Assembly: GCA_028820795.1 (NCBI GenBank)
Contig: JAPPHK010000240.1
Location: 1 to 48,167, forward strand
DNA length: 48,167 nucleotides
Origin: Nitrospinota bacterium
GTDB taxonomy: Bacteria; UBA8248
Reading direction: 5' to 3'
Notes under the pieces: generated by a model
What the model was told of the DNA's origin: nothing
Databases searched by the model: none
The model's input: only the letters and a program-made list of their open reading frames with translations
Program-made: the position numbers and the translations under genes
Shown here: positions 22,526 to 45,645 of the stretch, piece after piece
How positions within the stretch are numbered: the stretch's first letter is position 1
Layout of the letters: each line of letters begins with the position of its first letter

Positions 22526-22799
22526 GAGTCTCTCGCTTTCGACATCATTTACGTCCACGGATGTCAAAATGAAGAAAATCCAATATCAAACAGCCTCACC
22601 ATCTGTATTTATACTACTGAGTTTCAGCCCCACGCGAACATGGTTCGACGCTGCCACTAAAATTATTATGACCAAAGCGCCGGTGAGCAACTGGGCCATG
22701 ACGCTAGATTCATGGTATTTCATAGTTCCGTTCCATCATCGCAATTGCCCATTTGCCGTAGAGCCTCGGCATCACACGCAACATCCGTTTTGCCAATCA

Positions 22800-25576: not shown

Positions 25577-25706
25577 ATACTATCCTAATCAAAGCTATTT
25601 GGATGCAGTATTTACAGATGGGGATTTCCCCGGAGGGCTGGAAAGTTTTCACTCCACAAGATAGGTTGCACCCATTAACGAAGTATCCACGCTCAGCACA
25701 ACCGGA

Positions 25707-26501
25707 ATGTTTGGTGCTCTCATGCTCGATTTCATAGAAAAAACACTCAAAGATGCGGGCGCACTGGCCTTGTCGTTCATGAACAACGCCATAGGCGAGC
25801 AAAAACAAGACCGAAGTCTGGTGAGCGAGGCGGACCTCGAAGTGGAAAGATTCATTATTTCCCGCCTGAAGACATCATTCCCGAACGACAATGTTATCGG
25901 CGAAGAACTCGGCGGCGGAGAAACTCAATACTCCAAACACTCGCGTCTTTGGGCGATTGACCCCATTGATGGCACCAACCCGTTTCTGAACGGCCTGCCC
26001 ACATGGGGCGTATCCATCGGCGTCATGGAAAACGGAAAACCCCTCGCCGGAGGATTCTACATGCCCGTCGTGGATGAAATATTTCTTGCCCGCGTGGGAG
26101 AAAGCGCCACCAAAAACGGGAAGATACTTCCTAATCTCAAAAACATGGAAATATCCAATCAAACCGTCATGCTTGGTCCCTCGTCTCGAAAGCGTTTTTA
26201 TAAAATAGATTATCCAGGAAAATCCGTCGCCTATGGAAGCGCTTCCGCACATGTGGCGTATGCGGCTACCGGTGGCGTCATCGCCGCTTTGGTCGATAGA
26301 CCCCAAATTTGGGATATCTTGGGTCCTCTCGCCGTATTACAGGAAGTGGGAGGAGGCGCATATCATCCTGATGGCCATTCTCTCGATCTCCAGAAACTCG
26401 CGAATGGCGAAAAAGCCGAAGGGCCCGTCTTTTTTGGCCTAAAGGAAAATGCGGAAAAAATATTCCCTCTTATCGAAGTGTACCCCAGGCCAAAGTTCTA
26501 G
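25707..26501 (+). CDS. Inositol monophosphatase family protein
   Basis: The motifs WAIDPIDGTNPF and EELGG metal-binding context are typical of the IMPase/SuhB/CysQ fold. Confidence 0.8.
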   Translation: MFGALMLDFIEKTLKDAGALALSFMNNAIGEQKQDRSLVSEADLEVERFIISRLKTSFPNDNVIGEELGGGETQYSKHSRLWAIDPIDGTNPFLNGLPTWGVSIGVMENGKPLAGGFYMPVVDEIFLARVGESATKNGKILPNLKNMEISNQTVMLGPSSRKRFYKIDYPGKSVAYGSASAHVAYAATGGVIAALVDRPQIWDILGPLAVLQEVGGGAYHPDGHSLDLQKLANGEKAEGPVFFGLKENAEKIFPLIEVYPRPKF

Positions 26502-26604
26502 TTTTCAGCCCTGAAACCCGGCTCCGAAATCACTTTGCATTAAATCCCCTTCATCAAAACGAAACAGGCGATAGCCGCTTATATACGGCTCAATCGCAAC
26601 TTTT

Positions 26605-28476
26605 CTAAGTATCCACCCAAACAGGACTAGACCAAGCGATTTCCCCATCGTCTTGCACTAAACGGACATAATAATAATCCGACGCCCTCTCCCTGCCACT
26701 CGAATCGATCCACTCAAAAGAGACCGATTCCCGCCCCGGTTCATCTACATGAATTTCTCTCGCATTCTTGATGAATACGAGTTTACGGACCGGGGAGCAG
26801 GCCTCTGCACGAACTTTCAGTTTTCTAACAGCCAATTCATCCAACTTAATCTCTGAGCCCATGGGGGCGTCATTCAAGAAAAACTCAAGAATAATTCGCG
26901 CTCCTGTCGTGGCGTAGCAACGCCGCTCCCAAAGGGCCTTGAATATACCTTCCCGATCAAAGGTCTGCGCCCACACACAAGCCAATCCTCCTCTCCAGGC
27001 ATTCTTGAGGCGCAACCGATTCGAAAATCCAGGCTGAGAAGTGTGCGTATCCGAACCAGCGATGATGCCCAGGCGATATCCTTTCTCGAGCGCATCCTGC
27101 ACGCTTTGTCCTTCGTAGCGCGCCGGATTAACCAAAGGCCTTTCACAGCCATTGGCTTCGGAGTTGCCCCAACAGGAATAAATTTCGACGAGGCGCTGAA
27201 ACCTCGGGTCGTGCCAGCGCCAGCGGGTGCCAATCACAGCACTCACCGAGTGATGGGGAATTGTCATCACGCGGCCCTCTAATCCTTCCAGTTGTTTCCA
27301 GAGCTTTGCCGGATGATCGGAGTCGGAGTTTCGGGAGTCGAGCTTCGGAATATCCTGGTCATCCAAGAAATAGACATTCTTGTTCCCATCTTGCTCCAGC
27401 ATGCCAAACCATTCATACGCAGGAAGGGCCACGTATCTTCCCGCTTCAGAAAAACGATTCGCCGCATCAGCAACTTCTTTCCATTGCGCCTCATCCATTC
27501 GCATGGCCAAAGAAGTGCATGCGGCGAAATCCACCCCTGCGCAATCCCGCGCATAGGTGTGGACGTACTCCACGATTTCGCGCGCGGTCGATGGTCTCGG
27601 ATATTCCCCCACGCACAATCCGCTCATGCAATGCGGGTCTCCAAAAAGAAGCGTGCGTTCCGGGGCTTCGTCAAAGACCTGGATTGGTGGTGTATGAGCG
27701 GCTGGCAATCCATCCGCCAAGACCTTCAGCCGATGAACGCCCCGAGCTCTCAACACTATATTTTCGCAAACAAAAACCCCGGGGGACTCCTGTTGAAAAG
27801 TTGCGCTGCTTTCATCAGGCAACTGTAGTTTCGGGGTGGATGTACCTGTTATCGCAACATTATGAAAACAATCTCGCACCACAACCCGGACGGAAAAGTC
27901 CTGTCCCTTGATTACCTGCGCCGGCGCCGTCACCCAAAGGAAGGATGGTTCCTCGGGAAGCACATCAAAGGTCGGAGGATTTGAAATAAGCTCCCAGTTA
28001 CCCTCACCGCCAGAATCAATGGATAAAGTGACCTCGACAGACATGGCCAAGAACTGCGCCTGCACACCGGGGATGCCGGATGGCGTCCATCCATAGTCGA
28101 GCTCGATGGAATCACCTTCCTCTAAAGAGGAACCCTGAACCTTTAATTCAAGGCTGGCCGGAAGGAAAGTATAGCCTAGCACCGGTTCTATTAATGCAGG
28201 AACTAAAGCAACTTTCTCGTTCGAGCATCGGAATTTACAATATCCTGCAGCCGTCACGTTTTCAAATTGGGGCGTCGTGAACCCGTTAGGAGGCGTGAAT
28301 CGAAGACCCCCGCCTTGGTCGATTCCACGCGGACCAACTTCATATGCAACGCGCCACTTCCCCATCCTGCCCGCTACGATCGGGTTTTGAGGCGCTATCT
28401 CCGCACGACCAATATCTTCACCATGAAAATACTCTCGCAGCGCACCAATCCCCCGCCGAGGGGCTGTCATGAACAA
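26605..28476 (-). CDS. DUF3604/PHP-like metal-dependent hydrolase-like protein with an unknown N-terminal beta-rich half
   Basis: The C-terminal half has FGDPHC, IPHHS, GSDTHT and CYATTGARI, resembling what I recall of DUF3604. The first histidine motif is degenerate (GDPHCMS). The N-terminal ~270 aa is unassigned. Confidence 0.5.
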   Translation of the reverse strand: MFMTAPRRGIGALREYFHGEDIGRAEIAPQNPIVAGRMGKWRVAYEVGPRGIDQGGGLRFTPPNGFTTPQFENVTAAGYCKFRCSNEKVALVPALIEPVLGYTFLPASLELKVQGSSLEEGDSIELDYGWTPSGIPGVQAQFLAMSVEVTLSIDSGGEGNWELISNPPTFDVLPEEPSFLWVTAPAQVIKGQDFSVRVVVRDCFHNVAITGTSTPKLQLPDESSATFQQESPGVFVCENIVLRARGVHRLKVLADGLPAAHTPPIQVFDEAPERTLLFGDPHCMSGLCVGEYPRPSTAREIVEYVHTYARDCAGVDFAACTSLAMRMDEAQWKEVADAANRFSEAGRYVALPAYEWFGMLEQDGNKNVYFLDDQDIPKLDSRNSDSDHPAKLWKQLEGLEGRVMTIPHHSVSAVIGTRWRWHDPRFQRLVEIYSCWGNSEANGCERPLVNPARYEGQSVQDALEKGYRLGIIAGSDTHTSQPGFSNRLRLKNAWRGGLACVWAQTFDREGIFKALWERRCYATTGARIILEFFLNDAPMGSEIKLDELAVRKLKVRAEACSPVRKLVFIKNAREIHVDEPGRESVSFEWIDSSGRERASDYYYVRLVQDDGEIAWSSPVWVDT

Positions 28477-28550
28477 CCTCCCTTTCGAATAAAGAAAGTT
28501 TTAAAACTCATGGCCACGAAAGAGAAAACCTTCTAAAGGAATGAGCGAAT

Positions 28551-29222
28551 TTATTCCCATGTGAGCATCGCGGCGTACCCGTCTCTTGGTACATTCGAAT
28601 GAATTGGCAAGCCTTTGACCCGCTTAAATTCCTGGATGGTGATCAGGTGCACATTCGCTTCCCACAATATGTGGCGAAACGTGCACTCGAGCGTCTGGTA
28701 ATAGAGAAGAGGATCGTTCTCGTCTTTACGAAAACCCCTCTCGTGCGCAGGGAGAACGAGATTTTGAAAATAATCAATCACCCGCTCACCGTTCGCCCAT
28801 TTTCTATCGGGAGAATACCTCCGGGGCAATTCCTTTTCTCTCAGCGTGGCAAGCGTTTCTTTCGATAGAACCTCCCGGCACAAAGCGCATGCATCATCAA
28901 GCGCTGCCAGGACATCGGACATTCCAGGAAAGCGCGCCGGGTCCAACATTCTGTCCGCACCGCCGGTATCCGCCAGAGATTTATCCCGCGGCAAGGAACC
29001 CGGATACAAAACCGGGGGCCAAAATTCCAGAAAGAAAAGGTATGGAATCCATGCCGTATGGCTGATTTGTTCTTTGATGGACCAAGCTCCCCAACTCTTC
29101 TCTGGCAGCTTCCACTCCCATAATTCCTGCGGAAGCCCGTTCGTTTCTTCTCGAAACACATCCACCAAATTGCTATATTCTGGAAATACGTCCAGCCCCG
29201 GGGTAGAGAAATCTTCTGTCAT
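28551..29222 (-). CDS. DinB-like four-helix-bundle protein (tentative), paralog A
   Basis: His-containing helices are present (SIKEQISHTAW, LPAHERG, FRHILWEANVHLITIQ). It is clearly related to the 30775-31458 product: ...RH(I/V)LW...(H)L..I..., with a C-terminal G-Y-(A/T)-(A/T). Confidence 0.4.
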   Translation of the reverse strand: MTEDFSTPGLDVFPEYSNLVDVFREETNGLPQELWEWKLPEKSWGAWSIKEQISHTAWIPYLFFLEFWPPVLYPGSLPRDKSLADTGGADRMLDPARFPGMSDVLAALDDACALCREVLSKETLATLREKELPRRYSPDRKWANGERVIDYFQNLVLPAHERGFRKDENDPLLYYQTLECTFRHILWEANVHLITIQEFKRVKGLPIHSNVPRDGYAAMLTWE

Positions 29223-29239
29223 AATGTTTCCTCAACACA

Positions 29240-30139
29240 TCAAATGTCGTCCATTTTCATCGGCAAACGTTCCGCATACACCGTTGCCGCCTGCTGGGGT
29301 GACAAGTCCTTGTCCATCGTCTCTACGGTTTGCTCCGCCAAAGGCGTTGTTGCCAGATGGGAATAAACGGCCACGGCTCCTTCGTGGAACTTCGGTGTAA
29401 CGCCGGCGGCTTCAAAGGTCTGTGCAATCTGTTTCATTTCGTCGATATACCGCCATGCCACAACCGGGAGTCGGGGGGCGCTTGCGATTATCTGTTTATA
29501 AGAGGCCTCCTGGCTTGCTCGAAACTCATGACTTACTTCCTCGGCGAGACCAAGCGCTTCGGCCAGAGTGATAACGGCCGTTTGAAGAGCATGGGTTCCT
29601 TTCGTAAGAGCGGCATAACACATCTTGATCCCGGAAGCCCGGCCAATCTCCGGCCCAAGCTGGCGAACCACGATCCCCCTCCCATCCAATGCCGCTAGCA
29701 GCTCCGCCCGCTCGCCGCTGAAGTAAAACCTGGTGTTGTTCCGTGTCTCACTGGGTGGTGGGCCCAATATCCCTCCGTCAATGAAATCCGCTCCGGCATC
29801 AGAAATTCTTCTTGCGATAGCTTTTGCCGTTTCCGGCGACACGGCGTTGCAGTCCGCATACGGGGGGCAGAAACCGGAAGCTGACATGGTTTCCGCCACT
29901 TCGTCCGCCGCCTGAGCGGCCAAACCAGGAGGCACGATGGATAAGACAATATCCGCACGTCCCAGCATTTCGGCCATTTTCGGGAAATCCCGGATACCCC
30001 CTTCGGCGGCCAGGCGCTTCGTCCGCTCACTTCTGTTCGCGAGACACGTTATCACCTCAAACCCGTGCAATCTGAGCATTCGCCCCACTGCATGTCCCAT
30101 ATCTCCCGGGCTCATGATGGCAACGGTTGTAAGTGTCAT
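29240..30139 (-). CDS. NAD(P)-dependent oxidoreductase (6-phosphogluconate-dehydrogenase-type NAD-binding domain)
   Basis: An N-terminal dinucleotide fold VAIMSPGDMGHAVGRML is present in a 299-aa protein. The layout resembles 3-hydroxyisobutyrate-dehydrogenase-like proteins. Confidence 0.6.
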   Translation of the reverse strand: MTLTTVAIMSPGDMGHAVGRMLRLHGFEVITCLANRSERTKRLAAEGGIRDFPKMAEMLGRADIVLSIVPPGLAAQAADEVAETMSASGFCPPYADCNAVSPETAKAIARRISDAGADFIDGGILGPPPSETRNNTRFYFSGERAELLAALDGRGIVVRQLGPEIGRASGIKMCYAALTKGTHALQTAVITLAEALGLAEEVSHEFRASQEASYKQIIASAPRLPVVAWRYIDEMKQIAQTFEAAGVTPKFHEGAVAVYSHLATTPLAEQTVETMDKDLSPQQAATVYAERLPMKMDDI

Positions 30140-30271
30140 GCGAGCACCTCCTCTTGCCCGAATTTAGAAATAAACAATATATGCCGAGTCTAGCAGAAAT
30201 GGAGCTCTTCAGAGAAAAGGTGTTGACAGTTGATGAAACTAGCTTCAGGAGTTACGCACTTTCTGGACAGA

Positions 30272-30778
30272 TTATCTTTTCCAGGCACATTTTTTTTCTT
30301 TTGGAGAATACACCATCGAACCTGCAGGCTCGCTTGCTGTCGAATCTCTCGTCATGCGCAGCAGATTTACAGAGAAAATAGTGTTTGTTGCTCCCGCGAT
30401 CACAAGCATGTCGCTACCGAGCCGACAAACCAATTCTGCCCTTTGTCTTCTCTTCTTGTCGCTCACCTCGGCCCATGGCAACAGAATGTCAACAGACAAC
30501 CTCTTGGGGGCTGTCTCAGAAACGCGAACGTCCGCACGGCTGGTGTGCTTTGAAGCATCCAGATATCTCTTGAGAATTTGGCCTGCGTTCTTTGCGATGG
30601 TTTCTGGAGGCATGCCTCTCCATTTCCTTGCCTCCGCGACCAAAGTTGCTTTAATGCCCGTTTCGGAAAGAAATAACGGTTTCGAGAAGAACAAAAGCGC
30701 ACCCGCTACGGATGCAAATGAGATGAAGAAAAACCAAAAAAGGAAATTCTTTCGTGGTGAACCCGTGATTCTCATCAA
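30272..30778 (-). CDS. Hypothetical N-terminally membrane-anchored protein
   Basis: The 168-aa protein has one hydrophobic helix (FLFWFFFISFASVAGALLFF). Its start overlaps the upstream stop by 4 nt. I recognised no family. Confidence 0.4.
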   Translation of the reverse strand: MMRITGSPRKNFLFWFFFISFASVAGALLFFSKPLFLSETGIKATLVAEARKWRGMPPETIAKNAGQILKRYLDASKHTSRADVRVSETAPKRLSVDILLPWAEVSDKKRRQRAELVCRLGSDMLVIAGATNTIFSVNLLRMTRDSTASEPAGSMVYSPKEKKCAWKR

Positions 30779-31458
30779 TAGATTGGATAGGCGGTTGTGT
30801 AGCCGCCCACAGGAGCATCGGGATAGACGGGAGACAAACCTAAGGCTTCACGATGCAGCCTGATGGAGCGCAAATGAATCAAGTCATCCCAGAGTACGTG
30901 ACGTAGCGTCGCCAGGGGCGTAATTCGAAATCCATGCCCATGCTCCGGATCTATCGTAAATCCATCCGGGTGGCATTTCATACACCGGCTCCACAAATCA
31001 ACGGAGCGCTCCTCGCTCACACCTACGACCGATGAATCCGTAAAAACAAACAAGAGCGACTTATTCGCCGAATCCTCGTTCGCCAGCTTTTCTACTTGGT
31101 TCGCCGCTGCTTCACAAGCTTCGGAAAAACGTAAATGCAGCCACTCGATATCCCCATACCGCTTAGAGGAAAAACGCCGGTCGTCATCCCGCGTATTGAT
31201 GAACGTAGCGAACTGGCTCATATCCACAACCGGCCAAGGCAGGCCAGTGGCGCCGTAGAGAACCATGAACCACCGTGTCGTGATGTAGGCCATATGGCTG
31301 AGCTGCCTTCTTGGGGACCAGCGCGCCCATTCTTCCATCCCCGTTCTATCCAATTGCTCCTCGGATAAATCGATGAGTTCGCCCATACTCCATGCAGGTA
31401 TTTGCCGGTAGACATGGGCGATTTCACTTGGTGTAAGCGGATATAAAGATTCGCTCAT
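30775..31458 (-). CDS. DinB-like four-helix-bundle protein (tentative), paralog B
   Basis: The 227-aa protein has QLSHMAYI and LRHVLWDDLIHLRSIRL, parallel to paralog A. Its start overlaps the HAD gene's stop by 4 nt. Confidence 0.4.
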   Translation of the reverse strand: MSESLYPLTPSEIAHVYRQIPAWSMGELIDLSEEQLDRTGMEEWARWSPRRQLSHMAYITTRWFMVLYGATGLPWPVVDMSQFATFINTRDDDRRFSSKRYGDIEWLHLRFSEACEAAANQVEKLANEDSANKSLLFVFTDSSVVGVSEERSVDLWSRCMKCHPDGFTIDPEHGHGFRITPLATLRHVLWDDLIHLRSIRLHREALGLSPVYPDAPVGGYTTAYPIY

Positions 31459-32165
31459 GCCCTGACGCCCCCGTCCAGGAGTTCACAAACCGCTTGTTTG
31501 TTCTCCAGGGTAGCGAAAAGAAAATCCGGCGAAGCACTCGCCAACTCGTAAAGTGAATCCCCTCCTGTAGCCACAGCTATCGTGCTCGCGCCACATACGC
31601 GACCCGCAGAAACGTCGCGCCATGTATCACCAATCACCCAACGAGAAACGGAATCGCGCGGGAATATCTTTTCAATGATCGCCTCACCCCTTTGAAATCC
31701 TGCTTCCAGTAATTCCGCCCTGTCTCCAGAATCGGAGCCAAACCCTCCGAATGAAAAAAACTCGTTCAGCCCGCCACGCGAGAGTTTGATTCGCGCACCC
31801 GCTTCAATATTGCCCGTTCCCAGCCCCATGAACACGTCCGTTCGATTCTTCAACCGAGACAGCAAATCGGGAATTCCCGGCATCAGATGAAAATTTTTAG
31901 ATTCCCTAACCGTAGTCGGCAGGATTTCCACATATTTCTTCAAAAGGGCCTTTACCTCAGACTCGCTCCCGCGACGCTCAAGGTGAGAACGAAACATCTC
32001 TTGCACGATGAGTTCATCTGTTTTTCCATGCGGCCGAACATGGCGCATCGCGTTAGGTATCCCGTACATTCGCTTAAAAGCGATATTCAGGGCTGCTGCG
32101 CCCGCTCCTCCGCTTAAAAGCAAAGTACCATCCACATCGAACAGGATCAGGTGAATTGAATTCAA
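31455..32165 (-). CDS. HAD-superfamily hydrolase (phosphoglycolate-phosphatase-like)
   Basis: HAD motif I (LILFDVDGTL), then LGTGN and a late GDTWRD are present. The in-frame TTG at 32165 gives MNSIHLILFDVDGT. The longest ORF (to 32354) would overlap the divergent SDR gene, so the start is uncertain. Confidence 0.65.
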   Translation of the reverse strand: MNSIHLILFDVDGTLLLSGGAGAAALNIAFKRMYGIPNAMRHVRPHGKTDELIVQEMFRSHLERRGSESEVKALLKKYVEILPTTVRESKNFHLMPGIPDLLSRLKNRTDVFMGLGTGNIEAGARIKLSRGGLNEFFSFGGFGSDSGDRAELLEAGFQRGEAIIEKIFPRDSVSRWVIGDTWRDVSAGRVCGASTIAVATGGDSLYELASASPDFLFATLENKQAVCELLDGGVRA

Positions 32166-32278
32166 CGCTTTCTTTCCAATATGTAATCTTGGGTAAATCC
32201 GGGTGAGACAACTTCCCTGTATGGTATAACACGCTGTGGGAATGAACCAGCAATACATACAGAATAAGGAGATGAGAG

Positions 32279-32983
32279 TTGCCAGATCAGAAAATCGCCG
32301 TCGTAACGGGTGGCAACAAGGGCATCGGTTTTGGGATTTGCCGGGCGCTTTCAAGACAAGGGGCGAAAACCATCCTGACGGCGCGAGATGTCTCCAGGGG
32401 TGAAATCGCTAAAGAGCAGCTGAAAAAAAAAGGGCTGGAAGTAGTGTTCCATCCCTTGGATGTCACCGACCGGAACAGCATTGATTCTCTGGCCAGCTTT
32501 TTAACGAGAGAATTCGGACGACTAGATATCTTGATCAACAACGCGGCCATCAGGAAAGATGCCGGGATGATGGGACTGGACATATCCATCGATATCGTCC
32601 GCGATATGATGGAAACCAACCTCTACGGCCCGCTTATGATATGTCAGGCCTTGGCGCCCCTATTGAAAAAAAGTGCTGCGGGTAGAATCGTTAACGTCTC
32701 GAGCGGCATGGGCTCTCTCGCCAGCATGGGCGGAGGCTCTCCCGCATACAGAATCACGAAAACCGCTCTGAATGCGATGACGAAAGTTCTCGCGAGCGAA
32801 TTCCGGGGAACAGGAGTGTTGGTCAATTGTTGCCATCCAGGATGGGTGAGAACCGACATGGGCGGCCGCGGAGCCTCTAAATCCATAGATGAAGGAGCAG
32901 ATACGCCCGTATGGCTCGCTTTGCTGCCTAAAGATGGGCCTAACGGCGGGTATTTCCAGGACAGAAAACCCATGCCGTGGTAG
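32279..32983 (+). CDS. SDR family oxidoreductase (carbonyl-reductase-like)
   Basis: Motifs VTGGNKGIG, NNAA, YRITK and HPGWVRTDM are present. AAGGAG lies 7 nt upstream of the TTG start at 32279. Confidence 0.8.
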   Translation: MPDQKIAVVTGGNKGIGFGICRALSRQGAKTILTARDVSRGEIAKEQLKKKGLEVVFHPLDVTDRNSIDSLASFLTREFGRLDILINNAAIRKDAGMMGLDISIDIVRDMMETNLYGPLMICQALAPLLKKSAAGRIVNVSSGMGSLASMGGGSPAYRITKTALNAMTKVLASEFRGTGVLVNCCHPGWVRTDMGGRGASKSIDEGADTPVWLALLPKDGPNGGYFQDRKPMPW

Positions 32984-33097
32984 AGGACGTGTTTATTTCA
33001 TCACGTCGCCGGCGTGCTCAAGGCCGGCGTCCGGTGATTGCTTCGATAAAAATAGTATCAAGCGGCATTAACTATCGATTTCGTCGGCTTTTTAAAA

Positions 33098-33673
33098 TCA
33101 AGCCGATGTTTTTGCATAATCCCATCCCGTTACAAACAATTTCACTTCGCCGGTTGATTCCTCATATTTATAGCGAGTTAACTTGGCGAGATCGTCACCA
33201 TAGACATGAATGCCCACCACGGGTTCAGACGATGCACAACTAACCCGGTGCACGTCGTTGTCCATTGTACAGCACACGAAGACATCTCCGGGCCCGGCCA
33301 GGCGTTTCCCTTGTGGCGTGAGTTTTACGCGGGCGCCACTCTCGCGGGGACCCTCGCGCAAAAAACTCTCTTCATTCTCCATTCCACGGTAAATGCCTAT
33401 CACTCCCCAGGTGCCGTGATCATGAATCGGTGTGGTCTGCCCCACATCCCATATGCCGGCGCCAACAGAAAAGCTCTCGTCCGGTTCGACATGAACCCGG
33501 TTGAGCGTAAAACCTTCTTTTTTCACCAAGAGCTGATCGGCATTCAACAGGTTCGGCTCATCCAAAATCGGCTCGAGAGCCGTCACTACGCGAGAAGTTA
33601 CTTCTTCTTCGGTACCGCCAGTCTTTACAATTTCGCGAACTTGGTCGATAAAATCATTCATCTTTTTAGTCAT
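33098..33673 (-). CDS. Cysteine-dioxygenase-type cupin (thiol dioxygenase-like)
   Basis: The motif TPIHDHGTWGVIGIYRG plus a later DVHRV fits the 3-His cupin site of bacterial CDO/3-mercaptopropionate dioxygenase homologs. Confidence 0.6.
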   Translation of the reverse strand: MTKKMNDFIDQVREIVKTGGTEEEVTSRVVTALEPILDEPNLLNADQLLVKKEGFTLNRVHVEPDESFSVGAGIWDVGQTTPIHDHGTWGVIGIYRGMENEESFLREGPRESGARVKLTPQGKRLAGPGDVFVCCTMDNDVHRVSCASSEPVVGIHVYGDDLAKLTRYKYEESTGEVKLFVTGWDYAKTSA

Positions 33674-33722
33674 CTATGATCCCCCAAGTTTTTGGGATGC
33701 ATCCCAGCGAAATCCACACGTC

Positions 33723-34274
33723 CTAATTTTTGTGTTTCATTTCATGGAGCAAGAGCGCTATCTTCAGTGATACGCTACTGGCGAATCCGCCGAGCTCGCC
33801 CGAGCCCGCGATGACTCTATGTCATGGTATTATAAGTGGAACGGGATTTCTATGAAGCGCCTGGCCGACGGCGCGCGAAGCTTTCGGGTTTCCAATCTGA
33901 TTCGCCACCCAGCCGTAGGAGCGTGTCTCGCCATACGGAATTTTTTCCGTCTGCCTCAGCACCTTCCTCATAAAAGGCGTGAGAGGGGATAGGTCCGTCT
34001 TCAACTCAAAACTTTTTCGAGTGCCCTCTAGATACTCTTCAATCTCAATTGAAACTCGAAGACTCAATGACGTTGATTGTTCACTTGCATGATCAGCCAC
34101 GAGAGGTTTTTCCACCCCAGACAACATTCTGATTTCCGCTATACCCTCATCCGATACAAACACGGAGAATTCCGTACGCACCTTCTGGAGCCACTTGGCA
34201 ACATGATTTTCCAACGATTCCCCGTCTTTCTGGAACAACTCCCCCTGACGCCATTTATCCACCCGGCGCGCCAT
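33723..34274 (-). CDS. ogt: Methylated-DNA--protein-cysteine methyltransferase (Ogt/MGMT family) with in-frame TGA at the catalytic Cys codon; candidate selenoprotein, alternatively a fresh pseudogene
   Basis: The ORF-track product ends ...YGWVANQIGNPKASRAVGQALHRNPVPLIIP, then TGA (33822-33824). The same frame continues HRVIAGSGELGGFASSVSLKIALLLHEMKHKN to TAG (33723-33725). The family signature is (I/V)PCHRV. AAGGAG lies 8 nt upstream of ATG 34274. Confidence 0.6.
33787..33811 (-). promoter_or_regulatory. Candidate bacterial SECIS-like hairpin downstream of the ogt TGA
   Basis: On the coding strand there is a 7-bp stem (one G-U pair that exists only on this strand) with loop GGGC, spanning +14 to +31 after the TGA. 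It is extendable past a bulged G. I did not fold it computationally. Confidence 0.4.
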
Positions 34275-34297
34275 CTTAAATTCTCCTTTTCATACTG

Positions 34298-35494
34298 CTA
34301 AAACGCCGTGGCCACTCCTTTCACGTAGGCTTGCCCCGTTCGCAACCGCAAGATTTGATTCGTGCCGTCTGAATGCAAGAACGTACTGGCGTCGCGAAGG
34401 TATTTCTCCATGGGAGCATCGTGCATGATGCCCGCGCCGCCGAATACCTCCATGCCCAGACGCGCGCAATCAAAGGCGACTTCCGATGCGAAAACTTTGC
34501 ATTTCCATCCTTGCGTGAAATCATAGGGCTTTTGATGATCCACCGCCCAGGCGGTGCGCCAGATGTACGTGCGTGCAATGTCCAGATTCATTGCCATATC
34601 GGCGAGCATGGTTTCTATCGCCTGGTGCTGGCCGATGGGCTTGCCACCCTGGACTCGTTCACGGCTGTAGGCGAGCGCTTTTTCGAACGCGGCGCGTCCG
34701 ACACCTAGGGCCGTGGCGGCTGCTTCGGGTTTTCCCATCGCCAGGAGATTGCCCCTGATTTCGAACATGTTGCCTTCACCCAGAATCACATGGTTCTCGG
34801 GAATCTCGACATCTTCATAGAAAATTTCTGAATTCATCGAAAGACGCTGGCCAATTTTTTCATGTACTTCGCCTATCGATATGCCTGGAGTCTCTCTAGG
34901 CACCAGAAAGCCGGTTAAGCCTTCCCTCAAGTTTTTATTGAGGTCGGTTCTCGCCGCCAAAACATACAACGACGCAACAGGGCCGTTGCTGACATAGCGC
35001 TTCTTCCCATTGATGACCCATTTACCGCCTTCTTTCTCCGCGCGCGTATAAAGCGCAATGGAGGGATCGTCGTAATATCCCTGATGATCGGTTCCCGCTC
35101 CTTCTTCCGTCATGGAAATCGCAGCCAGGAATCTTGGTTCCTCACACAATCGTTTCATCCAGGGATCTCTGACTCCAGACTCTACTTTCTCGAAGATATG
35201 GGACAGCTTCCAAGTCTGATCCAGGTTCACCGCAAAACCAAGATCTCCCGCGGCAAGCTCTTCTCCCGCCAGACAGCACGAAAGCACATCTGCACCCATA
35301 CCACCATATTCTTTGGGATAAGGAAGTTGCCTTAAACCCAAAGCGCTCGCTTTTTCGGTCAGATCCCACGGCATCCGCTCTTCCCAGTCCTGAATCCGGT
35401 CTCTATCGGGAGCCACCGGAGCCAGTTCTTCATAGGAAAATTTTCTGGCTATTTCCTGAATCCGTATTTGCTCTTCATTCAACGTGAATTCCAT
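34298..35494 (-). CDS. Acyl-CoA dehydrogenase family protein
   Basis: The 398-aa protein has a typical ACAD layout (FTLNEEQ..., central beta domain, C-terminal ...FGGAGIMHDAPMEKYLRDA...EGTNQI). GGGAGGAG lies 5 nt upstream of ATG 35494. Confidence 0.85.
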   Translation of the reverse strand: MEFTLNEEQIRIQEIARKFSYEELAPVAPDRDRIQDWEERMPWDLTEKASALGLRQLPYPKEYGGMGADVLSCCLAGEELAAGDLGFAVNLDQTWKLSHIFEKVESGVRDPWMKRLCEEPRFLAAISMTEEGAGTDHQGYYDDPSIALYTRAEKEGGKWVINGKKRYVSNGPVASLYVLAARTDLNKNLREGLTGFLVPRETPGISIGEVHEKIGQRLSMNSEIFYEDVEIPENHVILGEGNMFEIRGNLLAMGKPEAAATALGVGRAAFEKALAYSRERVQGGKPIGQHQAIETMLADMAMNLDIARTYIWRTAWAVDHQKPYDFTQGWKCKVFASEVAFDCARLGMEVFGGAGIMHDAPMEKYLRDASTFLHSDGTNQILRLRTGQAYVKGVATAF

Positions 35495-35567
35495 GAACGC
35501 TCCTCCCGTCAATCACCCCTTGAAAGCGAGGCAAATAGTCAATCACTTTAAGGAAATCAAAAACGTA

Positions 35568-35951
35568 TCATGACGAACAAGACAATGCGCGATTAGCCGC
35601 ATCCATCTCCATGACGCCAGACGGCCTCTCAACGCCTTCGACGAAGGCAGCATCCGCACCGGCCATCTCAAGCTGAAAAACAACCTCGTTCAAGTCCGCG
35701 TTCGGAGATAGCAATATCCCTCGCCTCGCGGGCATACCCGTTTGAGCCACCTCGCCTACTTTCTGAAAAACTTCGGGAACACGAACAAACGCATCAAGGT
35801 CTTGTTTGTTTACGACGCCAATCAAACGCTTATTATCAAAAACCGCCGCCCAGGGCGCGTTTATCCTGTTCATGGCCGCCCAGGTTTCTCTAGCGTCTTC
35901 TTCCACTCCAACAATCGCTACCGCTTGCAAAAAACACTCCCTGACTTTCAT
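35568..35951 (-). CDS. CBS-pair domain protein
   Basis: The 127-aa protein has two CBS-like repeats (...AAVFDNKRLIGVVNKQDL... and ...AAFVEGVERPSGVMEMD...). Its start overlaps the upstream stop by 4 nt. Confidence 0.6.
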   Translation of the reverse strand: MKVRECFLQAVAIVGVEEDARETWAAMNRINAPWAAVFDNKRLIGVVNKQDLDAFVRVPEVFQKVGEVAQTGMPARRGILLSPNADLNEVVFQLEMAGADAAFVEGVERPSGVMEMDAANRALSCSS

Positions 35952-36649
35952 CGGTCGATGTTCTCGGCAACCGACAGATGACCAAAACGCGGCATCGCTT
36001 CAACTTTCAAAAACGTTGATTTCATCGATTTTATTTTCTCGAGCGGGTGTTGAGCAATTTCATTGGCCAGAGCCTTGGTTTCCCTCAACAAGTCTTTTTT
36101 CGATGTGACACGATTCACCAATCCTAAGCGATATCCCTCTCGCGCATCAAATCTTCTGCCAGTGAGCACTAAATCTTTCGCGGCTGGCACAAAAGTCTGT
36201 CGCGTCAGACGAACGGTAGCGTCTCCTCCTGGAAATACTCCCAACGCAGTCTCCGGATATCCCAAAACCGCGTCTCCCGCCGCAAGACGAATATCACATG
36301 AAAGCATCAACACCATTCCCCACCCGAAGGCGGGCCCGTTCACCGCCGCTATCGTCGGGATGGGCAGTTCACGAAGGGTTGTACTCCATCTCTCGCCCAA
36401 TAACATGAAGCGCTCTGCCTGTTCTTTCGTATGGGCAGCGCTTTCCTTGAGGTCGCGTCCTGACGAAAAAGAGCTTCCGGCGCCCGTCACGATAAGGACT
36501 TTAACGTCTTGCCTCCCTTTCATTTCATCCATCTTCTTGCACATGGCTTCCATCAATGGCGTGCTGAACGCATTTCGCAATTCCGGCCGATTCACGGTGA
36601 TACTCACGATTCCTGATTCTGCATGTATGATGAGGAGGTCTTTGTTCAT
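35948..36649 (-). CDS. Enoyl-CoA hydratase/isomerase (crotonase) family protein, copy 2
   Basis: Motifs ITVNRPELRNA, VTGAGSSFSSGRDLKE and AAVNGPAFGWGMVLMLSCDIRLA are present. ATG 36649 is preferred; the TTG at 36661 is the alternative. Confidence 0.8.
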   Translation of the reverse strand: MNKDLLIIHAESGIVSITVNRPELRNAFSTPLMEAMCKKMDEMKGRQDVKVLIVTGAGSSFSSGRDLKESAAHTKEQAERFMLLGERWSTTLRELPIPTIAAVNGPAFGWGMVLMLSCDIRLAAGDAVLGYPETALGVFPGGDATVRLTRQTFVPAAKDLVLTGRRFDAREGYRLGLVNRVTSKKDLLRETKALANEIAQHPLEKIKSMKSTFLKVEAMPRFGHLSVAENIDR

Positions 36650-36662
36650 ATTTCGCCACAAT

Positions 36663-36694
36663 GAACAAAAAGCCTGTCCCCTGAGGGACAGGCT
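36663..36694 (-). terminator. Strong hairpin plus T-tract between the two crotonase genes
   Basis: On the minus strand this reads AGCCTGTCCC-TCAG-GGGACAGGCT followed by TTTTGTTC: a perfect 10-bp stem. Confidence 0.65.
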
Positions 36695-36721
36695 TGATGT
36701 TCTATAAAATTGGCAACTTCT

Positions 36722-37504
36722 TTATTCTCCGGTAAAAACAGGCTTCCTCTTCTCTTTGAACGCCGCCAGCGCCTCGGCGAAATCCTTGGTGTGATTCAAC
36801 GGCAACCTGAGGGCATTGGAAAACTCGATGGCCTGGCTGAGCGGCATATCGAGAGTTTGATCGATCGCTTTTTTCGCGCTCCGTACTCCCAAAGGGCCGT
36901 TGTCTCTAATCCTCTCCGCCATAGTAGTGGCTTCATCCATCAGTACATCCAGCGGATGCGCTCTGTTCACCAAACCGATGCGCTCCGCTTCTTTTCCATC
37001 GATTCTCTTGCTCGTGAAAACCAACTCTTTCGCCTGGCCGGCCGGCATGATTCTTTGAAGCCAGACTACGCCGCCTGCCCCGGGGAAGATGCCCAGGCTG
37101 CATTCCGGAAAACAAATAGTGGCTTCTTCAGCAGCCAGCCTGATATCGCATACCAAGGTAATTTCAACGCCCCAGCCGAATGTGTGGCCATTGATGGCGG
37201 CGATGGTGGGCATGGGCAAGCGTTCCCATAACGACGTTGCCGACATCACATAGCGCTGGTATTGATCGGCCATCTCCTTCGTATGCGTTGCGCTTTCTTT
37301 CAGGTCGCGGCCGGTGCTGAAACCACGTCCCTCTCCAGTGAGAATAACCACCCGCACATTTTGCGCGTCGGCCAAAGTTCGCGCCAATTCCACGAATTCT
37401 TCCGCCATCTTGAAACTGATTGCGTTCAGACTATCCGGACGGTCGAACTTCACTACCGCCAATCCATCTTTTTCCGTATAGGTTAACGTTTCAAATTCGC
37501 GCAC
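36722..37504 (-). CDS. Enoyl-CoA hydratase/isomerase (crotonase) family protein, copy 1
   Basis: Motifs VKFDRPDSLNA, LTGEGRGFSTGRDLKE and AAINGHTFGWGVEITLVCDIRLA are present. The GTG start has AGGAGAGGG upstream. Confidence 0.8.
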   Translation of the reverse strand: MREFETLTYTEKDGLAVVKFDRPDSLNAISFKMAEEFVELARTLADAQNVRVVILTGEGRGFSTGRDLKESATHTKEMADQYQRYVMSATSLWERLPMPTIAAINGHTFGWGVEITLVCDIRLAAEEATICFPECSLGIFPGAGGVVWLQRIMPAGQAKELVFTSKRIDGKEAERIGLVNRAHPLDVLMDEATTMAERIRDNGPLGVRSAKKAIDQTLDMPLSQAIEFSNALRLPLNHTKDFAEALAAFKEKRKPVFTGE

Positions 37505-37545
37505 ACGCCCTCTCCTGGGAAATACTAAATTACTCTAAATTTGAA

Positions 37546-38088
37546 TCAGCTTTTCAGGTGGCTGGCTACTTCTTCGACAAACTTCAGCGTCGTGTCTCTC
37601 ATTTCATCAGCCTGCAAATTACTGACCGGGTGAGGCAACTGAATATAGGGATGCCCTTCCATGCCCTTGCCACGGAACTGAAAGTCCGCCGCGTTCTTGA
37701 ACGCCTCGGTGATGATGGTCGTTGAAGGGACGCCCCGTTTTTCAAATTCAACCGTGTCGTGCACACTGCACAACGTGCAGGAGCCTCAGCCTCCCAAAGC
37801 GGCTATCGCCACATCCACCTCCTGGGCCATTTCTTCGATCATTTCATCAGTGGCCGGCTTCGAGTAATGCTCTTTGCGCCTCGATACGACTCTGGCCACG
37901 TCGTATTGCTCGCGTAGGGCATTCCCCAGGGTTTCCAAAATGATATCCGCTTGCTCCTTGGTGTTATCGAGGAGTCCCACCACCTTTCCCGAAAGATCGC
38001 CGGGCCGTTGCGCAAGCTCGATTCGTGCGGCCGACCCTCCCGCTGTCGGATCGATGAATCCCATTCCGTTCGCCATGGTTTTCTCCAT
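37546..38088 (-). CDS. UGSC-motif selenoprotein candidate (U-x-x-C), split into two ORFs by TGA in the ORF track
   Basis: ORFs 37786-38088 and 37546-37773 are in the same frame. Read through the TGA (37786-37788), the junction is ...VAIAALGG-U-GSCTLCSVHDTVEFEKRG.... The M of the second ORF is an internal TTG Leu codon. ATG 38076 (GGAG upstream) is an alternative start. Confidence 0.7.
37756..37774 (-). promoter_or_regulatory. Candidate bacterial SECIS-like hairpin downstream of the UGSC TGA
   Basis: On the coding strand there is an 8-bp stem (one strand-specific G-U pair) with apical GUG, spanning +12 to +30 after the TGA. An alternative 6-bp hairpin spans +6 to +20. Confidence 0.4.
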
Positions 38089-38270
38089 ATAATATGTGAA
38101 TTCAACCGGACTTAAATCATATCCCGCAATTCATTCCTTGTCTACGATATCAGCCTATTCGTTATTTCCATGAATATGCGAATGTTGGTTTATCCGCTTC
38201 TCAGATTCGCCAAATTTTGGCAAAATCAAGTCTAATTTACGGAAAACCTCTTACCTTAAGGAGCAGACAA

Positions 38271-40532
38271 ATGGCCGATTACGATATCATCGGCAAGTCG
38301 AATGTTCGATACGACGCGATTCCAAAAGCTGATGGCTCCATGCCTTATGGAGAAGACGCGATACCCGCTGGCGCCCTGCTGTGCGGCGTACTGTTTACGC
38401 CCATCCCCGTAGGCCGCTTGAAAAAACTCGACACCTCAAAAGCCGAAAAAATCCCAGGCGTAGCCGCCATTCTGACTGCAAAGGATATTCCGGGCACAAA
38501 CGCGCGATTCAGCTCCGGCACGCCGGGCCTGCCCCATCAGCCAGTGCTGGTGGAAGACAAGATTGAATTCACCGGAGATGCCCTCGCTATCGTTGGCGCC
38601 GAAAACAGAGAAGCGCTTGATGCCGCAATATCGGCAATCGAAGTGGAAATCGAGTCGGAAGAGGGCGTGTGGACAACGCGTCACGATGAAACAAGCGCCG
38701 AAAAACGACAAGCGTGTGACTTTGAAGCTACCCGCGGAGACGTAAAGAGAGCGTTTGACGAAGCCGATGTGGTGATTGAGAAAACATACACTACGCAACT
38801 CGCTGAACACGCCTTCCTGGAACCCGCTTCCGGTACTTCCTGGATGGAGGAAGACGGCGTCATCACCATCCGCGTCGGAACCCAACTCATTGAATACTAT
38901 CGCGCCATTGCGGCGATTTTAGGAATCTCGCATAGCCGCGTCCGCCACCTCGGCACTTATGTCGGCGGCGGATTCGGCGCCAAGGGCATGTTGACTGTAG
39001 AGCCTTACCTGGCGCTGCTCACCTGGCATACGCAAAGGCCCGCCGTCATGGTGCTGGGTCGCGAGCACGGCATCAGAAATACCTCGAAAAAACATCCTTT
39101 CTATATGAGATACAAAACAGGAGCGACCAAGGACGGGAAAATCCTTGCCGTAGAAGCGGATATCGTGGGCGATGCAGGCGCCTATCCGTACAAATCCAAT
39201 CTATTCCTCTTGGGCGCGATGTGCATCGCCGCAGGCCCTTACGATGTCCCCAACGCAAAAATTCGCGCCCACGGCTATCTCACCAACAATCCCATCACGA
39301 ACGCGATGCGCGGTGTAGGGTCGAACCAGGTTTGCTTCGCATATGAGACTCAAATGGACCTGGTGGCGGACGCCATCGGGATGGATAAATACGAATTCCG
39401 GCGGAAAAATTTCATCCAGAAGGGCCAGGAACTGCCGACCGGGCAGAAAATTCCTTATGAACCGAACCTGGAAGGATGTCTCGACAGTGCGCTTCAGGCC
39501 TTGGGTGATCCCGCAGAACCAGGCCCGGGAAAACGCATTGGCAGGGCGGCGGCAGCGAACATCACTGGTTACGGAAGACCGCATGACGATGCGAATGCGG
39601 CGGTTCACCTCGAGCCGGATGGCAGCGCCGTTGTTCGCGTGAGCGCGCCGGACATAGGCGCCGGCCAGGGCGCTACGCTTCAAAGCATCACGGCTGAAAC
39701 CCTCGGGCTCAGGCTCGACCAGGTATCCACCCGCCTGTCAGATTCCGCCACAACACCACTCTCGGGAATCACGGCAGGTTCCCGCCAAACACTCATGGCG
39801 GGGCACGCTGTTCGACTTGCCGCAGACGAGGTACGGAAAGCCGTGACCAAAGGCGCAGCTGCGTTACTTGAAGCTGCAGAGGAGGACATTCGCCTTGGAG
39901 GTGGTGAGGCTTGGGTGGCGTCCGCTCCCGAGAGAAGACTCGGCATCGGTGCAGCTGCTGGCGAAGCGAAAAAAATGGGTGAAGCGCTACATTGCACCCA
40001 TGGCTACAACATGCCGGGACATGAGTACGAGAATCCGGAGCGATACATGAACGGCATGGGCGGATGGTCGGACTACACCTTTGGTGTTCATGCAAGTGAA
40101 GTGGAAGTCGACATCGAGACCGGCGAAGTGAATCTCTTGAAGCACGTCGCTTCCCACGATGTCGGACGAGCGCTGAATCCTCAAAGTGTTGAGGGGCAAT
40201 TCGAAGGCGGCGCGGTGATGGGGATTGGTTATGCGCTGCATGAGGAAATCACCATGGTGGAAGGTGACTGTCGATCACAAAGCTTCCACGAGTACCTGAT
40301 CCCTACTTCATCGGATATCGGCGAGTTTGAGTGTGTTGTTCTTGAATGTGGGGAGGGCGCAGGCCCATATGGTGCACGAGGCGTCGGAGAGCCTCCTTGC
40401 AATAATGCGCCGGCCGCCGTTGCTCTTGCCATCAATGATGCGATAGGCACGGAAGTCTACGATTTACCCATCACGCCCGAACGTGTTTGCTGGGCAGTCA
40501 CGAAGAAAAACGGTAAAAGCAACGGCCATTAA
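38271..40532 (+). CDS. Xanthine dehydrogenase / aldehyde oxidase family molybdopterin-binding subunit
   Basis: An N-terminal a/b-hammerhead-like segment (...LLCGVLFTPIPVGRLKKLDTSKAEKIPGVAAILTAKDIPG) and a C-terminal GARGVGEPP active-site context are present. AAGGAG lies upstream of ATG 38271; the ORF-track start is 38217. Confidence 0.85.
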   Translation: MADYDIIGKSNVRYDAIPKADGSMPYGEDAIPAGALLCGVLFTPIPVGRLKKLDTSKAEKIPGVAAILTAKDIPGTNARFSSGTPGLPHQPVLVEDKIEFTGDALAIVGAENREALDAAISAIEVEIESEEGVWTTRHDETSAEKRQACDFEATRGDVKRAFDEADVVIEKTYTTQLAEHAFLEPASGTSWMEEDGVITIRVGTQLIEYYRAIAAILGISHSRVRHLGTYVGGGFGAKGMLTVEPYLALLTWHTQRPAVMVLGREHGIRNTSKKHPFYMRYKTGATKDGKILAVEADIVGDAGAYPYKSNLFLLGAMCIAAGPYDVPNAKIRAHGYLTNNPITNAMRGVGSNQVCFAYETQMDLVADAIGMDKYEFRRKNFIQKGQELPTGQKIPYEPNLEGCLDSALQALGDPAEPGPGKRIGRAAAANITGYGRPHDDANAAVHLEPDGSAVVRVSAPDIGAGQGATLQSITAETLGLRLDQVSTRLSDSATTPLSGITAGSRQTLMAGHAVRLAADEVRKAVTKGAAALLEAAEEDIRLGGGEAWVASAPERRLGIGAAAGEAKKMGEALHCTHGYNMPGHEYENPERYMNGMGGWSDYTFGVHASEVEVDIETGEVNLLKHVASHDVGRALNPQSVEGQFEGGAVMGIGYALHEEITMVEGDCRSQSFHEYLIPTSSDIGEFECVVLECGEGAGPYGARGVGEPPCNNAPAAVALAINDAIGTEVYDLPITPERVCWAVTKKNGKSNGH

Positions 40533-40546
40533 CAGACGTTAATCAC

Positions 40547-40580
40547 AAAAGAGCCCCGGCATTATTGTCGGGGCTCTTTT
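40547..40580. terminator. Bidirectional rho-independent terminator between convergent genes
   Basis: The sequence AAAAGAGCCCCG-(10 nt)-CGGGGCTCTTTT has A/T tracts on both sides, 15 nt after the stop of the molybdopterin-subunit gene. Confidence 0.8.
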
Positions 40581-40709
40581 CTAAGGAAACGTGCCCTGCA
40601 TTTTTTTTATAGCAATAAGCTGACCGAATAGAATCTGTTCGAAATTTTGGTATGCCGTAGATGTTGTTGAAAATCAGGCCTGCCGCTGATCATCACTTAG
40701 ATAAAATTT

Positions 40710-41729
40710 TTACACATCAAATTTTTTTGTAACCGCTCGACACGCCACGGTAATTCCGTGCATGACCATACTCGAAGGCGAACCCATGCTTCCAGCAACC
40801 AATAAATGAAGATCGTCAGGATCTCCAACCACAGGCACAAAAAAACTGTCATCATTTACATTCACGGGAAACGGCCAGCGATCCGCGCCTTTCTCGCCTC
40901 TCCAGATGCCGCCGCGCTTTATATTCCCTATAGTGCGCCCACCCATTTCTAATAATTGTTGATGAACATCACTGCGAGTCAGCCCGGCGTCGGCGCACAG
41001 GTGCGCATGTTGCGCGCCCAGAACAACCGCCATATCTGCTTGCCGATACATATTTGGCCCACCCAATGCGGACATCATATCGGCAACCGTTGTAAGAAGA
41101 CGGTCAGGAGTCAGGCTCGCATCGTCCCATACCTGCACCGGTCCTTCGAGAGGAATCATGGTCACCACGTTATCGCTCTCCGAAAACCCTTTCGATTCCG
41201 CATACGACTCCCAAGGCGATTCCTCCTCGTTCTCCCGGATGCAAAAAGTGTTTCGCCAAGGGCCGCCAAAACCGCCGAGACAGGTAATTCCGGGAATACC
41301 ACCTCCCACATTCATCATGATGAGCCTCACGGCACGGCCGATAGTCAGGTTTGCGCGAAATCCGGGGCCCATGCAGCCCACGCCGCCATGCATCCCGATT
41401 TCTCTGGCGTAGGGGCCATTGACCAACAGAAAAGGCGCGCCCGCGCTCGTCGTTGCCTGAATCAGGTTTACGTTAAAACGCTCATCAAGAAGCGCTTCCA
41501 GTCCCGCTATCAACACCGGCATGTATTCAGGCTTGCAGCCCGCCATCACGGCATGGGCCGCCACGCCTTGGATGCTGAGTTCCCCACCCGCCGGTGCGAC
41601 ATGACCGAGTACTTCGCTCGGCTCCCTTGTCGTTCCCGAGAGCATCAAAGCGATTCTCTCATCCGTGGGCGTCACGACAGGCAGGCCGTCCGACCATTCC
41701 TTGTCAAAGAAAAACTCGAATTCATCCAT
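40710..41729 (-). CDS. Uncharacterised conserved protein, tandem paralog 1 of 4
   Basis: The 339-aa protein starts MDEFEFFFDKEWSDGLPVVTPTDERI. It shares HAVMAGCKPEYMPV and NGPYAREIGMHGGVGCMGPGFRANLTIGRAVRL blocks with the next three genes. GAGGAAG lies upstream. Confidence 0.75.
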   Translation of the reverse strand: MDEFEFFFDKEWSDGLPVVTPTDERIALMLSGTTREPSEVLGHVAPAGGELSIQGVAAHAVMAGCKPEYMPVLIAGLEALLDERFNVNLIQATTSAGAPFLLVNGPYAREIGMHGGVGCMGPGFRANLTIGRAVRLIMMNVGGGIPGITCLGGFGGPWRNTFCIRENEEESPWESYAESKGFSESDNVVTMIPLEGPVQVWDDASLTPDRLLTTVADMMSALGGPNMYRQADMAVVLGAQHAHLCADAGLTRSDVHQQLLEMGGRTIGNIKRGGIWRGEKGADRWPFPVNVNDDSFFVPVVGDPDDLHLLVAGSMGSPSSMVMHGITVACRAVTKKFDV

Positions 41730-41764
41730 GCATTCTTCCTCAGAAGCAAACCTGGCGGAATGGC

Positions 41765-42781: not shown

Positions 42782-42822
42782 GGGAATATGACACCGCTTT
42801 ACCTGTCATTGCGGCCGCGGCG

Positions 42823-43857: not shown

Positions 43858-43884
43858 TCACCTCAAAAGATATCGGGGGGCTCA

Positions 43885-44916: not shown

Positions 44917-45067
44917 GAAATGCCTCCGGTCAATTATCCGAGGAAAGGGATACGCCTGTTTCGCCGCACAAATATACATGGGCGCTGGACAGATTGCGAG
45001 TCCGTGTCGTTAGAATACGCCCGAGATGCTATCCTCCGTAAACACCTCATTTACAGGAGCTTATACC

Positions 45068-45454: not shown

Positions 45455-45645
45455 CCTCATCGGCGCAACGCCAATGTTATCAGCTTGTTTCACGGCATCA
45501 CCATGCGCGGTGCGGCCCGCGGACGGCCCCGTTTCGCCCTCCGCGCGTGAGCCGCTCTCGCCGGAATCCTCCCTGCAGCGTCTCGCCGCCCAGGCGAGTG
45601 CCCGGGATTTCATGCCCGCGAATCCGCGCATCAGCGCGCGAATCA

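Follow-up and report, generated by a model that had tools for sequence, protein, structure and literature searches.

The question raised by this locus is whether a TGA codon that stands where an Ogt/MGMT-type DNA alkyltransferase should carry its alkyl-accepting cysteine is a stop codon or specifies selenocysteine (Sec). The gene lies on the minus strand of contig JAPPHK010000240.1 (assembly GCA_028820795.1, Nitrospinota bacterium), of which the whole analysed stretch of 48,167 nucleotides, positions 1 to 48,167, is referred to here as the window. Taken as a stop, the TGA at 33824..33822 closes an open reading frame (ORF) of 150 codons, 34274..33825, which ends ALHRNPVPLIIP (...HRNPVPLIIP). 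Past the TGA, the frame stays open for another 32 codons, HRVIAGSGELGGFASSVSLKIALLLHEMKHKN, up to a TAG at 33725..33723, so that the complete coding sequence at 33723..34274 (minus strand) would comprise 183 codons, M1 to N183 including U151, plus the TAG. Direct reading of the sequence places a Shine-Dalgarno element, AGGAG (34283..34287, minus strand), 8 nt 5′ of the ATG at 34274, and the stop codon of an acyl-CoA dehydrogenase gene is found 23 nt upstream of the start. On the evidence presented below, the gene very probably encodes a 183-residue O6-alkylguanine-DNA alkyltransferase in which Sec151 is inserted with the help of SelB and an mRNA hairpin, and in which alkyl groups are transferred irreversibly to selenium. 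A selenocysteine alkyltransferase had been put forward in the initial annotation of this DNA, and the proposal is supported by conservation of the TGA in 24 further loci, by a ratio of nonsynonymous to synonymous substitution rates (dN/dS) of 0.14 after the TGA and by the hairpin.

Profile searches with Cys substituted for Sec gave matches that run straight across the TGA. The AGT DNA-binding/active-site domain, PF01035, was matched by residues 100–178 (33741..33977, minus strand) with an E value of 1.3e-30 and 105.5 bits (cut-off 27) over profile positions 1–79 of 81, and the NCBIfam model TIGR00589 ("ogt") was matched with an E value of 3.5e-30 and 103.9 bits (cut-off 46.4). The N-terminal domain PF02870 had no match in a Pfam search of the product. 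In alignments with Mycobacterium tuberculosis OGT (4wxc and 4bhc; E about 3e-23, with 2.6e-23 for the PDB OGT/AGT matches) and with human AGT (48% identity across 79 residues), the TGA (33822..33824) falls on the cysteine of the PCHRV motif, which is Cys145 in the human protein; the codon is invariant in the window and the 24 further loci. The active-site motif therefore reads I-P-U-H-R-V, the family motif being (I/V)-P-C-H-R-(V/I). Human Y114, R128, N137, H146, K165 and E172 are conserved here as Y120, R134, N143, H152, K171 and E178, all within the PF01035 domain together with U151, and human Y158 is replaced by F164 (codon 33783..33785, minus strand). Both the placement of the TGA exactly at the PCHR acceptor cysteine and the claim that the frame beyond it encodes a family C-terminus with no further stop, made when the locus was first described, were thus borne out by the domain span, by the alignments and by the 32 codons leading to the TAG.

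Relatives of the gene were sought among proteins and at the DNA level. The protein search returned about 53 public clusters with 64–91% identity, all ending ...PL[VI]IP and most of them 150 amino acids long; named clusters are Nitrospinae/Nitrospinota MGMT, with one labelled Gammaproteobacteria, and the nearest Cys-containing proteins showed 47–54% identity. All public records of the clade MGMT (P0001–P0053) are truncations of 138–150 residues with this ending, some of which bear the name "methylated-DNA--[protein]-cysteine S-methyltransferase". At the DNA level, the TGA was followed by HRV... and a complete C-terminus in 24/24 further loci, the most divergent of them about 50% identical. These comprise 16 genome loci (L001–L016), more divergent loci (L076, L077, L078 and L080) and distant, syntenic ones (L085–L088); together with the window they form a set of 25 sequences from metagenome-assembled genomes (MAGs) that carry the label Nitrospinota and probably belong to GTDB phylum UBA8248. 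All clade sequences share the position of the stop to within a few codons. Gene order is likewise shared, with genes for a xanthine-dehydrogenase-like protein, a UGSC-family protein (called in two pieces), enoyl-CoA hydratases, a CBS protein, an acyl-CoA dehydrogenase, MGMT, a 191-aa ORF, a short-chain dehydrogenase/reductase (SDR) and a haloacid dehalogenase (HAD) protein. The nearest Cys orthologue at the DNA level, in loci L083 and L084, has TGC at the same column, is 52% identical and is partly syntenic.

These data bear on two explanations in which no Sec is involved. In the first, a nonsense mutation killed a Cys-type ogt and the downstream frame is the decaying remnant of a pseudogene, as would fit the 150-aa truncated protein given by gene callers and public records and the loss of the active site that a stop at this position would cause. 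Mean pairwise dN/dS among the 21 closest sequences (dS about 0.7–0.9) was, however, 0.14 after the TGA, the same level as upstream (0.15 over everything before the TGA, or 0.12 when only the domain's portion before it is counted); the 32 downstream codons contained no indels or stops, the end point was shared, and the same TGA recurred in the 24 further loci (about 50–91% identity) as well as in at least 118 loci from genomes of other species. A pseudogene, for which downstream decay and the lack of a conserved stem-loop had been named as the expected signs, is extremely unlikely given this purifying selection and the conserved hairpin described below. In the second explanation, TGC or TGT was turned into TGA by an assembly or sequencing error in the scaffold. 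One base change would suffice, but the codon is shared by dozens of independent assemblies from differing projects and technologies, closed long-read chromosomes among them, and the probability of such an error is negligible. As judged from the aligned sequences, neither a pseudogene nor an assembly error can explain the dN/dS and orthologue data.

A hairpin resembling a selenocysteine insertion sequence (SECIS) was identified at 33788..33810 (minus strand) by folding and by comparison of the 25 sequences. Its core is a 7-bp helix, 33808..33802 paired with 33797..33791, which includes one G-U pair, is capped by the loop GGGC (33801..33798) and occupies positions +14 to +31 after the TGA. The extended form, CGCGGGCUC-GGGC-GAGCUC(G)GCG, has 9 bp with a bulged G and a folding energy of −11.8 kcal/mol, and its stem begins 11 nt past the TGA. 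All of the features initially described, namely the position, the 7-bp stem with one G-U pair, the GGGC loop and the possible extension past a bulge, are present. Across the 25 sequences, the 7-bp helix was paired in 99.4% of cells, compared with 27–53% when the partner columns were slid. In L085–L087 a G-C pair has become C-G, by GCG to GCC (Ala) on one side and CUC to CUG (Leu) on the other, both synonymous; in L005, L012 and L014 a C-G pair has become U-A, where C is replaced by U at a third position and GAG by the synonymous GAA. Neither the observed pairing nor the observed covariation score was reached by any of 500 shuffles. Apical loop variants among the clade hairpins are GGGC, GGGU and AGGU. 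No equivalent hairpin was found in the nearest Cys orthologue (L083/L084), and the Sec forms of Bacillota carry another hairpin, with a 5-bp stem and the loop AGGUG, at the same distance. When Sec and Cys forms were compared for downstream folding, mean z values were −0.36 and +0.20, respectively (Mann-Whitney p 3e-6), a modest difference that adds weak support. Conservation, compensatory synonymous changes and the lack of an equivalent in the nearest Cys orthologue thus all favor the SECIS role first suggested for this hairpin. A terminator or attenuator was ruled out, as the hairpin is not followed by a U-run and nothing resembling a terminator occurs in the vicinity of the TGA.

The minimal SECIS of Escherichia coli fdhF, reportedly defined by Liu et al. 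in 1998, is a 17-nt stem-loop located 11 nt past the UGA, with the loop GGUC. The window hairpin shares with it the location inside the coding sequence, the 11-nt spacer and a small G-containing apical loop (GGGC here). It differs in sequence, in having a bulged G on the 3′ side rather than a bulged U, and in the stability of its stem (−11.8 versus about −4 kcal/mol for the fdhF hairpin); SelB binding is predicted.

Purifying selection downstream of the TGA demonstrates continued translation but not which residue is inserted, and a third explanation is accordingly that the codon is read through without Sec, either by a near-cognate or suppressor tRNA inserting Cys, Trp or Gly or under genetic code 4 or 25. 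That the Sec machinery was not directly seen in the window or clade loci would suit this explanation. Against it, TGA is the commonest stop in the window, ending 16/37 long ORFs, and a codon-usage scan of the window gave only two credible in-frame TGAs, those of the MGMT and UGSC genes, each at the redox or nucleophile Cys of a known selenoprotein family. Other in-frame TGA candidates were antisense to longer ORFs or otherwise unconvincing. Stop-codon usage, together with the finding of only two credible in-frame TGAs, excludes codes 4 and 25.

The UGSC-family selenoprotein gene (37546..38088, minus strand) lies 3.5 kb from MGMT. Its TGA, at 37788..37786, is part of the motif GG-U-GSC (GG-TGA-GSC), and searches assign its product to PF24696 (E 9e-52) as well as to NF041046, "UGSC family (seleno)protein", in agreement with the earlier report of a second TGA-containing gene with a U-x-x-C motif at this distance. 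A hairpin, GUUGUGCA-GUG-UGCACGAC (37774..37756, minus strand), begins 11 nt past the UGA, as does that of MGMT. Syntenic loci retain both the UGSC TGA and its hairpin, the hairpin being invariant in the clade except for a compensatory G-C to A-U change in L277; in comparison with shuffles its fold gave a z of +0.3 and was not singled out by thermodynamics. Gene callers split the UGSC gene into 96 aa and 72–75 aa in every syntenic locus.

A link to an organism with documented Sec use was provided by locus L198, from the MAG FO_M_Nitrospinota_01, which shares synteny with the window (UGSC 79%, xanthine dehydrogenase 75%, 191-aa ORF 67% and MGMT 52% identity) and has the TGA in its MGMT gene. For this MAG, of GTDB phylum UBA8248, 54 selenoprotein genes are recorded in BSepDB, a database whose search was confined to genomes with two or more of SelA, SelB and SelD (PMC13326102). 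From this relative and the literature we infer that Sec machinery is present in the organism. The first description of the locus had supposed that the organism decodes Sec, which is supported by the UGSC gene with its conserved hairpin and by the Sec-using syntenic relative. Two genes each with a conserved hairpin 11 nt downstream of the TGA, and a syntenic relative that is a documented Sec user, render read-through without Sec highly unlikely.

Several observations nevertheless weigh against Sec insertion in this gene. No proteomic or 75Se evidence for the window protein, or for any natural Sec-MGMT, was found in the literature. When the window and 285 loci were searched with ARAGORN, and ten further window ORFs with Pfam (housekeeping only), neither the 48-kb window nor the clade loci examined yielded selA, selB, selD or tRNA-Sec, and the sole tRNA-Sec among the 285 loci belonged to an unrelated Desulfomonile locus (L143). 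The MGMT hairpin alone folds no better than shuffled sequences (z −1.0; 31/200 shuffles equal), and its stem encodes a conserved peptide, A-G-S-G-E-L-G, so that part of the stem conservation is due to protein constraint. Rfam gave no match for the whole window at the gathering score, and a search of 33700..33900 at E ≤ 10 returned only chance-level hits to snoR28 and gyrA (E > 3). To our knowledge, Rfam contains no general bacterial SECIS model, those SECIS models that it does hold not being general bacterial ones, and the absent match therefore says little. Because the single-sequence fold is unremarkable and Rfam gave no match, the case for the hairpin rests on comparison with relatives.

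The Sec reading may also be refined into a selenium-dependent switch, in which termination at the UGA would yield a 150-residue, catalytically dead DNA-binding fragment and the full-length protein would be made only when Sec-tRNA is available. Bacterial decoding of UGA as Sec is generally inefficient and competes with release factor 2 (RF2), and the alkyltransferase-like (ATL) proteins, to which the family match 3gva belongs, show that non-catalytic relatives of this fold can be functional. The fragment, however, would end before the domain's final helices, H152 and E178 included, and gives no sign of folding; we accord the switch a small chance.

If UGA is decoded as Sec, the codon at 33824..33822 would not be taken as a stop, and the hairpin at 33810..33788, with its G-rich loop GGGC, would serve as a bacterial SECIS that recruits SelB-GTP-Sec-tRNA(Sec) to the ribosome. 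After insertion of Sec, translation would run on for 32 codons and complete the active-site domain. In the finished protein, O6-alkylguanine would be flipped out of the DNA by the Arg134 finger and Tyr120, and the selenolate would attack the alkyl carbon to give Se-alkyl-selenocysteine, in one irreversible turnover per molecule. At neutral pH a selenocysteine is mostly ionised and so would depend less than a thiol on activation by the residues around it. We infer from sequence that Sec is inserted and that the natural protein repairs DNA, as we do any advantage that it may have. An engineered counterpart is available: human AGT C145U protects E. coli from N-methyl-N′-nitro-N-nitrosoguanidine (MNNG; Haruna et al. 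2014, PMC4150793) and tolerates N137A, a change that inactivates the Cys form (PMC4150793). The AGT active site of this protein likewise has a selenolate as the acceptor, and its repair of MNNG damage was shown in vivo (PMC4150793); it was made with an artificial UAG, EF-Tu and tRNA-UTu and no SECIS, whereas the window gene appears to be a natural UGA/SECIS gene.

Sec-containing MGMT has been predicted before. CHY0809 (ABB14497.1) of Carboxydothermus hydrogenoformans was reported in 2005, when it was the only known case and was regarded as a single recent event (PMC1287953). Two sequences from Olavius symbionts (PMC1976440) and one from the GOS (Global Ocean Sampling) metagenome (PMC2398784) are also on record, and Sec-MGMT is listed in reviews of 2022 and 2026 (PMC9312934, PMC13188914). 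The initial annotation, which mentioned predictions of this kind from marine metagenomes, had suspected Sec-MGMT to be rare rather than new, and the first three of these reports agree with it. The window gene adds a well-supported, clade-fixed member to a family that is already known and fairly widespread, and is not a discovery. It belongs to the same family as CHY0809 (PF01035/COG0350), has the TGA at the active-site Cys and a stem-loop just downstream, and was predicted by the same logic of Sec/Cys homology. In comparison with the published description of CHY0809, the lineage is Nitrospinota-labelled, probably UBA8248, rather than Bacillota, and the Sec form is fixed clade-wide with conserved synteny; the Bacillota Sec forms sampled are about 36–60% identical to the window gene over the regions aligned by tblastn.

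The distribution of Sec-MGMT was examined with a degenerate DNA pattern, AVG-x5-NP-x5-P-TGA-HR, which detected at least 118 loci in GTDB species genomes from some eight phyla, 118 being a lower bound. Among the matches listed, 114/118 loci have an intact family C-terminus, and the phyla and groups represented are Nitrospirota, Desulfobacterota, Dehalococcoidia, Planctomycetota, Bacillota, Fusobacteriota, Myxococcota and Nitrospinota/UBA8248. Cultured carriers with an intact C-terminus (L271, L191, L233 and L177) include Propionigenium maris DSM 9537, Gudongella sp. DL1XJH-153 and SC589, and Desulfarculales strain Dcd-1. The acceptor column is shared by 136 unique Sec forms and 107 unique Cys forms (TGC or TGT), and no fewer than 12 switches between Sec and Cys follow from a rough neighbour-joining tree. 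With the Cys-type enzymes (M. tuberculosis 4bhb/4wxc, the C-terminal domain of E. coli Ada, 1sfe, and human 1eh6) the window protein shares fold and motifs, namely the Tyr, the Arg finger, N-P-x-P-x-x-x-P, H-R-V and the final Glu; it differs in its predicted Sec acceptor, in Phe164 in place of human Tyr158 and in the lack of a PF02870 match. ATL proteins (e.g. 3gva, a weak match with E 7e-07) share the PF01035 fold that binds alkylated DNA, but they are complete proteins without an acceptor residue, whereas in the window gene the acceptor codon would be recoded, not lost.

The substitution at the human Tyr158 position was compared between Sec and Cys forms. Phe occupies this position in 134/136 unique Sec forms but in only 24/107 Cys forms, 82 of the 107 having Tyr; at the level of 70%-identity clusters, the counts are 27/27 for Sec and 8/29 for Cys, all drawn from L001–L285 with no proper phylogenetic correction and with a Cys sample biased to relatives of the query. 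In the rough neighbour-joining tree, several clades of the Sec/Phe type are sister to Cys/Tyr groups, and the pairing apparently does not stem from one inherited event. Tyr158 lines the active-site pocket, and simulations place it on a water chain His146-Cys145-Tyr158-Lys165 (PMC9515978). We regard the Sec/Phe association as a lead, not a result. That natural Sec alkyltransferases form a mechanistically distinct subclass, and are not simple Cys-to-Sec swaps, is possible on these alignments but doubtful. If the association is functional, the Tyr hydroxyl and the water/proton relay may be unnecessary, or harmful, with a permanently ionised selenolate, and the Sec/Phe pairing, if true, would be the natural counterpart of the engineered N137A result. 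The clade would be useful for pursuing this idea, as it offers a fixed Sec form and a Cys sister lineage, with cultured carriers elsewhere.

The remainder of the window, which forms part of the 55.8-kb scaffold_1247 of ENA ERZ23495471, was also surveyed. A conserved 191-aa ORF (33098..33673, minus strand), a syntenic partner in the clade gene tables with tblastn identities of 51–94%, starts 49 nt past the MGMT stop; it had no Pfam match, and two tandem copies are present in L198. Between two enoyl-CoA hydratase genes, a perfect 11-bp palindrome, AAGCCTGTCCC...GGGACAGGCTT, with a T-run (36670..36695) looks like a minus-strand terminator inside an apparent single operon. Window content is otherwise ordinary and chromosomal (dnaN, nadA, and PrpD-like, MscS, MFS, MatE, xanthine-dehydrogenase-like and pyridoxal phosphate (PLP) enzyme genes), and over the whole of 1..48167 neither a tRNA nor an Rfam match was found. 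In the near-identical loci L083 and L084 (about 949–4027), gene calls differ for AhpC/Redoxin (187 versus 151 aa) and OsmC (81 versus 156 aa), which may reflect further TGA-interrupted selenoprotein genes or assembly differences.

For the family, the analysis points to a systematic mis-annotation, in which public 150-residue "methyltransferases" would really be 183-residue selenoproteins. Sec-MGMT would be no one-off of Carboxydothermus, as it appears lineage-fixed here and recurs in at least 118 further loci, mostly in selenoprotein-rich groups. The finding will not surprise a selenoprotein specialist; its value lies in the correction of annotation and in an entry to an uncharacterised natural selenoenzyme. 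To spend Sec on a single-use, self-inactivating protein is unusual, and no natural Sec-MGMT has apparently been characterised. Sister lineages with Sec and Cys forms, together with the cultured carriers, could show what benefit a selenolate brings, whether in speed, in function at low pH or in substrate range.

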